This document shows positions 53,598 through 57,159 of a stretch of DNA of 64,000 nucleotides, in pieces. The notes beneath the pieces were generated by a model. That model was not told where the DNA came from. It did no database searches and was given only the letters and a program-made list of their open reading frames with translations. This stretch comes from a virus (lineage: Duplodnaviria; Caudoviricetes), in the IMG/VR virus record IMGVR_UViG_3300028048_000068, positions 64,001 through 128,000 of that record. One strand, 5' to 3'. Each line of letters opens with the position of its first letter. Position 1 is the stretch's first letter. The position numbers and the translations under genes were made by a program.

Positions 53598-54263
53598 ATG
53601 GTTATATATTTTAAAAATCAAAAGGCATATGAATATAGAACAAATAAGGCGCAAAATGATGCATTTATTGAAGGATGTATAGATGCCGTATATACAGGTA
53701 AACGAGATATTGATATAAAGTACGGAATTGAAAGTTTATTTCTATCCAAACGTGAAGCCGTATCTGTTGTTTTTCCTATTGAAAGTTCTTTTATTAATTA
53801 CAGTGATGAACTAGATTTTGATAAAAAGTATTGTGATTTAAATAATATTCAATATAGATATCAAGATAGAAAAGGCAGTACTGTAATGGCTTTTCAAGGA
53901 GATATATATATTTATGATTTAAGATTGAATAAAGATCATGAACCTTTAATCCACAAATTTATACAAGATGTAATTACATATTTAAAAATTCGTACTGGTA
54001 AAGAAGCAGTACTCGATGGTAACGATATACTTCTTGATAATAAGAAAATATTTGGTATGGTATTTCAATATTATCCAACAAAATATGGTGATTATAGTTA
54101 TATGGGAGGCATATTATCTATTAATTCAGATGCTAATGTGATTGAAAAAGTATGTTATAAGAAATCAGGTAAAATTCCAGGATCATTAATGGAGTATTCG
54201 ATCACAACAGATGAAATGGTAGAGTGGCTTCTTAAGTGGTTTCATCAGCATAGTATTCAATAA
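53598..54263 (+). CDS. Lipoate-protein ligase (LplA/BPL)-like protein
   Basis: GNDILLDNKKIFG, and a degenerate R.GSTV...GD motif. Confidence 0.6.
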   Translation: MVIYFKNQKAYEYRTNKAQNDAFIEGCIDAVYTGKRDIDIKYGIESLFLSKREAVSVVFPIESSFINYSDELDFDKKYCDLNNIQYRYQDRKGSTVMAFQGDIYIYDLRLNKDHEPLIHKFIQDVITYLKIRTGKEAVLDGNDILLDNKKIFGMVFQYYPTKYGDYSYMGGILSINSDANVIEKVCYKKSGKIPGSLMEYSITTDEMVEWLLKWFHQHSIQ

Positions 54264-54267
54264 AATC

Positions 54268-54293
54268 AAAGACTACATCGTAGTCTTTTTTTT
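54268..54293 (+). terminator. Intrinsic terminator
   Basis: AAAGACTAC-ATC-GTAGTCTTTTTTTT. Confidence 0.85.
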
Positions 54294-54362
54294 ATTGCTT
54301 AAATTTTTTAACCTCTTGACTCAAAAAGTTATAACCTCCTAATCCAAAACCCACTTTCCTTA

Positions 54363-54501
54363 TGAGTAAGGGAGTTCAACCTTCTAAAATAAAAAGTTAA
54401 ACTTACTAGCCAAACCCCCTTACTCAAGTTAACCGATAGGCACAAGACTTAACTCTTTGAGCCTAGGGATAAACTAATTTACATAACTTCTCTAGGCTCA
54501 A
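54363..54501 (+). ncRNA. Structured 5' leader of the six-gene operon
   Basis: Stems 54363-76/54413-26 and 54457-69/54489-501. The segment 54435-50 is complementary to 55526-41. Confidence 0.55.
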
Positions 54502-54522
54502 CCCTACATAGGAGGTATATAA

Positions 54523-54900
54523 ATGTCTTACGTCTATTACAACCCAAATCCACTTAAACTATCCGTTGGCGATTGCACAATCCGCGCCATTTCATGCGCA
54601 TTAAACTTCACATGGGAACAAACTTACAACGCACTCGCACGGCAAGGCTTCGAAATGTGTGATATGCCATCGGCTAATAGAGTATGGGGAACTTTTTTGA
54701 AGCAACAAGGTTTTAAAAAGTATCAAATGCCAGACCTATGTCCAGATTGTTATACAGTTAGAGATTTCTGTTATAATAGTCCCTATGGCACGTTCATTCT
54801 CGGAACGGGAGAACACGTAGTATGTGTCATAGATGGAGATTACTATGACTCTTGGGACTCTGGCAACGAGATACCATTATATTATTTTAAAAGGAGTTAG
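54523..54900 (+). CDS. Operon gene 1: small putative papain-like Cys peptidase
   Basis: GDC.IRA...HVVCVIDG.YYDSWDS gives a candidate Cys-His-Asp triad. Confidence 0.55.
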   Translation: MSYVYYNPNPLKLSVGDCTIRAISCALNFTWEQTYNALARQGFEMCDMPSANRVWGTFLKQQGFKKYQMPDLCPDCYTVRDFCYNSPYGTFILGTGEHVVCVIDGDYYDSWDSGNEIPLYYFKRS

Positions 54901-54902
54901 TC

Positions 54903-55334
54903 ATGGCTTACAACAATTATTTTCCACAGACGTATACGTCTCCGACTTACACATACGGCGCGACTGCAGCCCCTGTACAGACATGGGCGACACCGGCGCA
55001 ATCGACAAACCAACAAGTAAATGCAATTAATTGGGTACAAGGTGAAGCTGGCGCAAAATCAGTACCCGTGGCGCCAGGTCAAAAGGTTCTGCTTATGGAT
55101 AGTGAAACCAATGTATTCTATGTCAAATCATCTGACGTCTCTGGTATGCCATTACCTCTTCGTATTTTTGAATACAAAGAGGTGTCCAAAGTCGCGTCAG
55201 ACGAGGTGAACGCTAGCGCGCAGAATACGTATGTCACCCACGAAGAGCTTGAGCGTATACTTGCAGATTTAAAAACAAAAGAACAGTCAAAACAAGAGAA
55301 GAAGGAGGTAAAGAAAAATGAGTTCATTATATAA
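54903..55334 (+). CDS. Operon gene 2: hypothetical protein with low-complexity N-terminus
   Basis: WVQGEAGAKS.PVAPG..VLLMDSE...FYVKS.D.SGMP core. Confidence 0.75.
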   Translation: MAYNNYFPQTYTSPTYTYGATAAPVQTWATPAQSTNQQVNAINWVQGEAGAKSVPVAPGQKVLLMDSETNVFYVKSSDVSGMPLPLRIFEYKEVSKVASDEVNASAQNTYVTHEELERILADLKTKEQSKQEKKEVKKNEFII

Positions 55335-55521
55335 TGATTTCAATCCAGGACCAATAGGTAATATTGCCAATCTTCTTTCTCAATTTCACCAGTTTAGCTC
55401 GACTTTTTCTGGCAATCCAGAAATGCGAGTAAAACAAATGCTACAAAATGGTCAGATGAGTCAAGAACAATTTAATCAAATAGCTCAAATGGCTAATCAG
55501 TTATATCGTTTTATTAAGTAA
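55318..55521 (+). CDS. Operon gene 3: small Gln-rich helical protein
   Basis: GNPE..V.QMLQNGQMSQEQFNQ, AGGAGG RBS. Confidence 0.75.
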   Translation: MSSLYNDFNPGPIGNIANLLSQFHQFSSTFSGNPEMRVKQMLQNGQMSQEQFNQIAQMANQLYRFIK

Positions 55522-55575
55522 TTTAAAGTCTTGTGTCTATCTCACTAAATTTTTATTTTTAAGGAGGTAGACTAA

Positions 55576-57159
55576 ATGTCACTTACAGATGGTAATGGAT
55601 TAAGTGCTGCTGATGTTGCAGCAGTAACAGGCAACGGCGGTGGCTTCGGCAATGGCTGGGGCGGAGATGGTGCTTGGTAGATAACTGCCAAGGGTAAATC
55701 GCGGAATTAAGCGGGAAGGCTGAGATGCTAATCCGAACCGAAGGTTATAGGTAAAACTATAATCAGGGGCAACGCATAGGTTCTGAAACTCTATATGAGA
55801 ATATAATGAACCCACGAGGCCGCGATAGTTTTTAGAACTTGACATTTTAATATAATTATGATATAATATAATTAGGAAAATTAGAATGTCAATAAGAGGT
55901 ACGATATGAAGAAAGGTAGTTTTTATACAATAGATGATTACGAAATTACATACGATGGGCAAGTTATAAATAAACATAATGATTATGTTCTAAAAGGGCG
56001 ACCTAATTCAAAAGGTTACCTAAGAGTAAAAATTGGCGGGAAAATGATGTTTATTCATCGACTTGTTGCTGAAAAGTATGTTCCTAATCCAGACAATAAA
56101 ATGCAAGTTAATCACAAAGATGGTAATAAACTAAATAACTCTGCTGATAATCTTGAATGGGTAGATAATCAAGAGAATCGTAATCACGCAGTAAAAGAAT
56201 TTTTACATTTACAAGGTGAAGATTGTCCTTATTCTAAATTGAATTGGGAGGCTGTAGATTATATTCGAGCCAATCCAGATCATCTTTTACAAAGAGAGCT
56301 TGGCGAAATGTTTGGAGTATCAAGAACTACCATCGGTGATATAATTCATTATCGTACTTGGAAACGTAAACCTAAAAACTAAAAAGATATGCTGAACTTA
56401 TACGAATAAGAAGTATAAGAAATAAGAGATAAAAAACTCTTATGATAACAAATTGGGTTACTCGTTCTTTTCCTTTTTGCTTTCAATGGCAACTGGGGAA
56501 ATGGTTGGGGCAACAATGGCGGAAGCAACGGCTACGTAGTTTCTGATGTACAAAGAGGTTTCGACCAGAGCGCAATCATGAACGGAATCAGTGGTGTTCA
56601 GAGCGCAGTTACAAACGGCTTCGTAGACACAGCGGCTGCTCTGTGTAATGGATTCGCTGGCGTAAACGGCGCAATCTCCAATGGCTTCGCACAAGCTGAA
56701 ATTGCTAACAACGCTCGTCAAATGGCCAACATGCAACAGGTCTATGGACTTCAGTCTCAATTCGCTGATTGCTGCTGCGAGAACAGACTCGCTTCGGCAG
56801 ACCTGAAGTACACAATTGCAACGGAAAACTGCGCAGATAGAACTGCCCTTTCCGATGGTGTCAGAGACATTCTCACAAACCAGAACAACGGTATTCAAAG
56901 AATTCTCGACCAGATGTGCAACGACAAAATCGACGCCAAGAACGAAAGAATTGCTGACCTTGAGAGACAGCTTACAATGGCTAATCTCGCTGCTTCACAG
57001 AGCGCGCAGACAGCTCAAATTCTTGCTAACAACGATGCACAGACAAACGCTCTGGAGCAATACCTTGCACCAGTTCCACGTCCAGCATATATCGTTCAGA
57101 ACCCTAATGGATGCGGATGCAACAGCATAAATAGCTGTGGATGCGGTTGTGCATTCTAG
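55576..57159 (+). CDS. Operon gene 4, spliced: exon1 55576-55678, exon2 56456-57159 (268 aa); Gly-rich/hydrophobic N-terminus, coiled coil, Cys-rich tail
   Basis: AAGGAGG RBS at 55561. Splicing gives MSLTDGNGLSAADVAAVTGNGGGFGNGWGGDGAW-W-LLVLFLFAFNGNWGNGWG..., in frame with ORF 56578-57159. Confidence 0.85.
55679..56455 (+). ncRNA. Group I intron in operon gene 4 (777 nt)
   Basis: P1 is CUUGGU/AG pairing with CUGCCAAG. P3 is AUCGCGG(55698)/CCGCGAU(55820). P7 is GCAUA/UAUGC. There are P9 hairpins and a terminal G. Confidence 0.88.
55906..56382 (+). CDS. Intron-encoded HNH homing endonuclease
   Basis: GYLRV...HRLVA...VNHKDGNKLNN.ADNLEW....N..H plus a C-terminal HTH. Confidence 0.9.
   Translation: MKKGSFYTIDDYEITYDGQVINKHNDYVLKGRPNSKGYLRVKIGGKMMFIHRLVAEKYVPNPDNKMQVNHKDGNKLNNSADNLEWVDNQENRNHAVKEFLHLQGEDCPYSKLNWEAVDYIRANPDHLLQRELGEMFGVSRTTIGDIIHYRTWKRKPKN

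Follow-up and report, generated by a model that had tools for sequence, protein, structure and literature searches.

A long-range RNA helix around three genes of a rumen-phage late operon and its possible role at the ribosome-binding site of the fourth

Long-range pairing in bacterial mRNAs and in a rumen-phage operon

In the RNA phages MS2 and Q-beta and in hok-type toxin mRNAs, a start site is controlled by mutually exclusive local and long-range pairings; at least one of the partners is coding or 3'-terminal, and the trigger is the passage of ribosomes or trimming of the 3' end. Exclusive local and long-range pairing of this kind has been described for a toxin mRNA (PMC6733600). Bacillus subtilis offers two further cases: RNase III targets long-range duplexes of 10-36 bp in mRNAs, the cut sites being as much as 505 nt apart (PMC11780869), and isoform-specific long-range occlusion of a ribosome-binding site (RBS) distinguishes sigma-B from sigma-A transcripts (PMC8208050); anti-SD-like long-range pairing has also been reported in Bacillus (PMC12697547). 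Pairing between the 5'-UTR and 3'-UTR of icaR in Staphylococcus aureus covers the Shine-Dalgarno sequence (SD), represses translation and triggers decay by RNase III (PMC3868564). Activation is exemplified by DsrA, which stimulates rpoS by anti-antisense pairing with the inhibitory strand of the RBS hairpin, the DsrA-rpoS duplex being an RNase III site as well (PMC2831331). That bacterial mRNAs commonly fold over long ranges has been shown only lately, chiefly for repressive structures and RNase III substrates of Bacillus.

The locus described here is part of a late operon of a rumen phage, in which genes 1-3 are followed by gene 4, all on the + strand. It was studied in a window of 64,000 nt, the whole stretch of DNA analysed (bases 64001-128000 of a 136.6-kb virus record estimated to be complete); unless stated otherwise, positions are those of the window. 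Genes 1-4 all belong to phage protein families without assigned function.

54363-76/54413-26, +: leader stem 1; 6 pairs change on both sides among the few sequences alignable
54435..54450, +: 5' arm of the long-range helix, GATAGGCACAAGACTT; non-coding, proposed anti-anti-Shine-Dalgarno strand
54457-68/54490-54501, +: leader stem 2; 10 of 12 pairs change on both sides; present in minimum-free-energy (MFE) and centroid folds
54523..54900, +: gene 1, 125 aa, phrog_3754; possibly a papain-like peptidase
54903..55334, +: gene 2, 143 aa, phrog_21718
55318..55521, +: gene 3, 67 aa, phrog_22984; stop codon at 55519-21
55526..55541, +: 3' arm of the long-range helix, AAGTCTTGTGTCTATC; non-coding
55576..55678, +: gene 4, exon 1, with the start at 55576
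55679..56455, +: gene 4 intron with an HNH endonuclease ORF (55906-56382), spliced in RNA contigs
56456..57159, +: gene 4, exon 2, phrog_16490

An initial annotation of the sequence had drawn attention to the complementarity of the two arms, and its description of the layout holds throughout. The arms form a 16-bp helix (15 of 16 pairs Watson-Crick, one G.U on the + strand) across an intervening distance of 1075 nt, enclosing genes 1-3 in a 1.1-kb loop; both are non-coding. The 5' arm sits between two leader stems, both of which co-vary, and the 3' arm lies between the gene 3 stop and the gene 4 RBS, starting 5 nt past the former and ending 21 nt ahead of the gene 4 GGAGG. Downstream of it the spacer is A/U-rich and leads, through AAGGAGGTAGAC, to the gene 4 start.

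The closest described systems share individual traits with this arrangement. Like the B. subtilis RNase III targets (PMC11780869), it joins distant segments of one Firmicute transcript through a duplex of similar length, but the loop of 1.1 kb holds three protein genes and the span exceeds the 505-nt maximum. As in the RNase III stems that enclose 16S and 23S rRNA, the arms flank a whole functional unit; unlike in those stems, the 3' arm is here also part of a predicted RBS-sequestering hairpin. In the Bacillus cases of long-range occlusion (PMC8208050, PMC12697547) distant mRNA segments likewise decide access to an RBS, and the presence of the upstream segment alters translation; there, however, the distant segment blocks the RBS, whereas here it would free the RBS by capturing a local blocker. 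DsrA and rpoS offer a mechanistic likeness, in that base-pairing of an RNA to the inhibitory side of the RBS hairpin exposes the RBS; DsrA, however, is a separate small RNA needing Hfq, while the proposed activator strand resides in the same mRNA, 1.1 kb upstream. Like icaR, also from a Firmicute, the locus pairs non-coding regions on either side of a coding unit over a long range. In icaR, by contrast, the SD lies inside the helix of a single-gene mRNA, whereas three genes are enclosed here and neither arm contains or pairs with an SD; repression of the icaR type was rejected on this ground. From MS2, Q-beta and hok the locus differs in that both arms are non-coding. From the known long-range mRNA helices of Firmicutes discussed here, it differs in enclosing three cistrons and in having both arms non-coding, and it would differ in acting positively.

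The locus can be viewed as a natural case, strongly supported by evolutionary comparison, of a leader that seems to exert a positive effect within an operon on a cistron 1.1 kb downstream. Its 27 natural variants, which include compensatory changes and a bulged form, make up a ready mutational series, and the locus suggests that uncultured rumen phages use RNA architecture, besides promoters and terminators, to organise late-gene expression.

The helix in the window and among its relatives

By a single-sequence statistic the helix is not significant. First-order Markov shuffles of the window, searched for 16-mer inverted repeats with at most one mismatch within 3 kb, give an expectation of about 8 such repeats per 64-kb window of like composition, and 7 distinct ones are observed. 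Similar inverted repeats elsewhere in the window have at least one arm inside an ORF, and their number matches the chance expectation; the 54435/55526 pair is the only repeat of this quality with both arms outside ORFs, and the arm motif occurs at only these two places in the 136.6-kb genome. The MFE and centroid structures of the whole 1.25-kb RNA retain the long-range helix, which closes a large domain, together with both leader stems. A search of Rfam 15 returned no match at the gathering threshold or at E up to 1.

The case for the helix is comparative. Relatives were collected with the gene 2 and gene 1 proteins as probes, so that loci were not chosen on their arms, and the gene 1-5 module was recovered from 58 viral contigs, at least 80 metagenome contigs and 51 genome contigs. 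The contigs come mostly from rumen and gut, with remote relatives in metagenome-assembled genomes (MAGs) of Ruminococcus, Oscillospiraceae and other Clostridia. A search of the phage collection by nucleotide sequence gave no close relative, and protein matches there, at 30-50% identity, are too distant for a test of the arms; scanning DNA for the pattern of the gene 4 RBS yielded mainly unrelated matches and only two new loci. The core set consists of 27 non-redundant relatives, namely complete loci whose gene 2 is at least 63% identical to that of the window, plus L204 (48%).

Helices were sought by ungapped scans with reversed-sequence controls, RNAduplex on long windows having given inflated, uninformative duplexes. 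In every locus of the core set the best leader-to-spacer helix is the homologue of the window helix, with scores of 34-44 against 17-25 for the controls. Its placement is likewise stable: the 5' arm lies 65-88 nt ahead of gene 1, the 3' arm starts 44-57 nt ahead of gene 4, and 2-8 nt separate it from the gene 3 stop in all relatives. Below 60% identity in gene 2, no leader-to-spacer helix rises above control, the exceptions being the homologous helix of L204 and possibly L209, whose candidate long-range helix does not overlap the anti-RBS strand described below. One further locus is L312, from a contig binned with an Oxalobacter MAG, in which unrelated repetitive sequence stands in place of the entire leader and of gene 1 up to codon 36, with an intact 3' arm and RBS; such a structure would come either from a chimeric assembly or from a recent rearrangement, too young for a natural experiment on the arms.

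Covariation between the arms in homologous operons, the check that the initial annotation had proposed, was found in the 27 relatives. Pairing fills 93% of cells in alignment A2, taken from MAFFT without editing, and 6 pairs change on both sides; the covariation score of the MAFFT alignment of the 27 relatives was reached by none of 500 shuffles, and shifting the 3' partner by 1-3 columns lowers pairing to 29-61%. With a structure-aware pairing, in which each sequence was duplex-folded and numbered from the conserved cores, positions 2-14 form standard pairs in all 27, and changes on both sides occur at seven pairs:

Pair 2: A-U or G-C
Pair 8: A-U, G.U or G-C
Pair 10: A-U or U-A
Pair 12: G-C or A-U
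Pair 14: C-G, U.G, U-A or A-U
Pair 15: U-A, A-U, U.G or C-G
Pair 16: U-A or C-G

Mapped on a tree built from the coding sequence inside the loop, the double change at pair 2 has two or more independent origins, and position 8 has undergone five or more changes. The helix varies from 14 to 20 bp among relatives, its ends shifting by compensated changes, and one subgroup carries a single bulged base; the duplex energy nevertheless stays near -25 kcal/mol (-21 to -29). Conservation of the arms (0.88-0.89) equals that of codon positions 1-2, whereas the flanking non-coding bases, at 0.56-0.67, behave like third positions.

One-sided changes tell the strand on which the pairing matters. There are at least 11 such events, spread over six positions, and every one leaves a G.U pair on the + strand; A.C never appears. 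This points to the sense-strand RNA, since in the other strand the same mutations would give A.C. Judged from these substitutions and from the compensatory changes, the pairing is a selected helix in the sense-strand RNA, and not a DNA repeat, the end of a mobile element or a product of chance. The earlier proposal of selection at the RNA level, made from the lone G.U pair of the window, is thereby strongly supported, also by the presence of both arms on one RNA contig.

Transcripts, the gene 4 ribosome-binding site and readings of the helix

The operon is expressed, and both arms are carried by one RNA. Two metatranscriptome runs (X1 and X2) of a single bovine sample contain 84-88% of the sampled words of the stretch, and relatives of the stretch are present in other rumen RNA runs. 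A 16.3-kb RNA contig starts at 54383, after Illumina adapter letters, runs unbroken through both arms to 55678, skips 55679-56455 and continues past 57300. The 5' arm lies inside RNA contigs of three runs, and a further run, of unknown kind, reads through leader and intron without a break.

The 3' arm shares bases with a second predicted structure, a local hairpin at the RBS of gene 4, whose strands are as follows:

55535..55543, +: anti-RBS strand, GUCUAUCUC; comprises the last 7 nt of the 3' arm (55535-41) and two more bases
55564..55572, +: RBS strand, GAGGUAGAC; lies inside the invariant GGAGGTAGAC

The RBS strand consists of the last four bases of the gene 4 SD and the five following bases, and is complementary to the anti-RBS strand. 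The GUCUAUCUC/GAGGUAGAC hairpin is the MFE structure of the intergenic RNA in 27 of 27 relatives, with energies of -8 to -16 kcal/mol (median -12.5), and an inner extension of it often covers the remaining SD bases. GGAGGTAGAC is found once in the genome and does not vary across the clade, L204 or L209. As the RBS strand does not vary, the hairpin itself is unable to show covariation within the clade.

Helix and hairpin are mutually exclusive, owing to the 7-nt overlap at 55535-41; at about -25 against about -12 kcal/mol, the global fold picks the helix in silico. The substitution pattern agrees with such competition. The portion of the long-range helix that lacks covariation (UAGGC/GUCUA) is exactly the portion that the hairpin also uses, which a mutual constraint among three strands would predict. 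The freedom of pair 2 to be either A-U or G-C is accounted for by the hairpin, where the 3' base of the pair lies opposite a G that tolerates U as well as C. At 3'-arm position 9' a U to C change (L013 and L018) finds its match twice, in an A to G change of the 5' arm and in the G that follows GAC on the RBS strand; this single event is suggestive of the same three-strand constraint. Against a role at the RBS, blocking the 3' arm in silico raises the predicted accessibility of the gene 4 SD in the window only from 0.15 to 0.37, a modest rise because the A/U-rich spacer gives other weak partners. A crude survey of SD accessibility over all module genes in the wider family likewise found the gene 4 SD no more occluded than the others. 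In favour of such a role, the nearest outgroup (L206-L208) has no leader arm, and its gene 4 SD lies in a different, much stronger hairpin of 15-18 bp with a predicted unpaired probability of 0.00-0.02.

On balance we favour, tentatively and as something possible rather than probable, the reading of the leader arm as a cis-acting anti-anti-Shine-Dalgarno sequence. By default, the gene 4 RBS would be folded into the local hairpin, with 55535-43 on 55564-72. Complementarity to the leader arm covers 7 nt of the anti-RBS strand and the 9 nt upstream of that strand; once the more stable long-range helix forms, the hairpin would be excluded and the RBS open, and the leader would thereby license translation of gene 4 in cis. 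Host RNase III, in a Firmicute-type host, might in addition cut the near-perfect 15-20 bp duplex, which would render the opening irreversible and separate the gene 1-3 message from that of gene 4. Translational control had been one branch of the earlier proposal, and the overlap of the 3' arm with a strand that would otherwise sequester the gene 4 RBS lends it specific support.

A less likely, though substantial, alternative by analogy is that the helix is purely an element of processing or stability. It would serve as an RNase III site, or as a downstream structure for an RNase Y cut in the A/U spacer followed by a block to RNase J1, so as to split the gene 1-3 message from the message of gene 4 onwards and set their lifetimes, the RBS hairpin being incidental. 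Non-coding arms that exactly flank whole cistrons would suit such a role, as would a near-perfect duplex of 15-20 bp, within the 10-36 bp range of the B. subtilis RNase III targets (PMC11780869). RNase III genes are present in four of four Ruminococcus/Acutalibacter-type genomes that hold remote relatives of the module and represent the likely host group, but the phage genome has no RNase III gene of its own. Distant relatives also fit processing: about 40% of them have a local hairpin in the gene 3-gene 4 spacer whose end lies 25-45 nt ahead of the gene 4 ATG, matching the end of the 3' arm in the clade (e.g., L022, L268, L288, L290 and L299). These hairpins may be functional counterparts of the long-range helix, or protein-binding sites. 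The RNA contigs, on the other hand, run unbroken through both arms, which would also be seen if cleavage were partial, and the similar depths in run X2 of the contig with genes 1-3 (89.5) and of the downstream contig (78.7) speak weakly against a split. Processing also leaves unexplained why GGAGGTAGAC is invariant and complementary to the arm. The initial annotation had also envisaged an RNase III-type site that excises or circularises the genes 1-3 message. Its RNase III part is plausible by analogy; excision or a circle finds no counterpart in the RNA contigs, where no joint linking the arms was seen and the sole joint is that of the spliced gene 4 intron, although contigs drop rare forms.

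The cis-acting anti-anti-Shine-Dalgarno reading and RNase III cleavage are compatible, since cleavage of the helix would remove the anti-RBS strand and lock the RBS open, as with DsrA and rpoS (PMC2831331). A more elaborate form, which we consider rather unlikely, is a bistable switch in which one intergenic strand is contested by the leader arm and the gene 4 RBS, with a balance tuned near -25 kcal/mol, and in which ribosome traffic at the gene 3 stop, or leader processing, times gene 4. With gene 4 as a possible double-glycine-like precursor and gene 1 as a possible peptidase, such a switch, if real, would ensure that the peptidase is made ahead of its substrate.

Two further RNA-level explanations have low standing. 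That the leader is a small, stable, processed RNA acting in trans on the gene 3-gene 4 spacer of the same or other mRNAs, like C4 RNA of phage P1, is improbable: the two co-varying stems flanking the 5' arm would befit such an RNA, but no terminator was found after stem 2 and the RNA contigs run on from the leader into gene 1. There is similarly little likelihood of a closed loop that brings the gene 3 stop beside the gene 1 start for ribosome recycling, or of a folding insulator separating genes 1-3 from the gene 4 start region. The short and conserved gap between the gene 3 stop and the 3' arm, and the large domain closed by the helix in the global fold, agree with it; a bacterial precedent for recycling via an RNA clamp was not found, and nothing specific to the locus speaks in favour.

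Inverted repeats around a gene cassette are the usual signature of invertible segments, terminal repeats of mobile cassettes or paired protein-binding sites. Such a DNA-level origin is nonetheless highly improbable and was rejected, given the strand asymmetry of the one-sided substitutions, the single orientation of the locus (no relative has genes 1-3 inverted or missing), the lack of a recombinase gene or target duplication beside the arms, and arm ends that extend to varying length by compensatory changes. A functionless chance repeat, of which about 8 would be expected per window, is refuted by the covariation across 27 relatives and by arms conserved far above their flanks, and has next to no likelihood.

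Gene content, leader and promoter region

Cys18 and His98 are invariant in gene 1, and a fold search gave papain-like or C39-like peptidase matches that are only weak and non-significant; for genes 1 and 5, sequence and fold searches returned no significant match. The N-terminus of gene 4, M-S-L-T-x-G-x-G-L-S-A-A-D-V-A-A-V-T-G-N, is conserved in relatives and resembles the double-glycine leader consensus of exported peptides. Genes 1 and 4 may be a peptidase and its substrate. The gene 4 intron matched no group I model in Rfam. Its splicing is seen in contigs of runs X1 and X2, where 55678 is joined to 56456, restoring a Trp codon (T|GG); gene 4 is uninterrupted in all relatives examined, and the intron has no counterpart there.

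Upstream of the helix, two elements precede the leader stems:

54268..54288, +: intrinsic terminator (9-bp stem, then a T run) that ends the preceding gene and insulates the operon on its 5' side
54310..54362, +: promoter-like block with TTGACT (54316-21), CCACTT (54351-56) and TATGAG (54361-66), conserved in alignment A2

No sigma-70 consensus was called on the + strand of the leader. The motif YYACTT-N5-TATGR occurs at three intergenic places in the genome, 9064, 118351 (window 54351) and 132257 in genome coordinates, each just upstream of genes, and may be a phage-specific promoter element. RNA contigs of the preceding gene end at 54250 and 54252, and those of other runs start at 54417 and 54423; the 5' boundary of the RNA lies between the terminator and 54383. 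The start of the main contig at 54383, with its adapter letters, suggests a real RNA 5' end. This position falls in the loop of stem 1, so that stem 1 is uncertain in the mature RNA: either the transcript is processed in the stem 1 loop, or stem 1 acts before processing.

Some minor similarities within the leader and spacer may be added. In distant relatives the local spacer hairpins are often perfect palindromes with a GC-rich centre, such as ATCGTGCGCACGAT or AAATGTGCGCACATTT. The UAGGC of the 5' arm (54437-54441) recurs in the 3' strand of stem 2 (54494-54498), and its counterpart at the gene 4 RBS is UAGAC (55568-55572). With GCCUA in the 5' strand of stem 2 (54460-54464) and GUCUA in the 3' arm, further alternative pairings could form. 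Relatives with quite different stem 2 sequences still hold a GCCUA-like word there.
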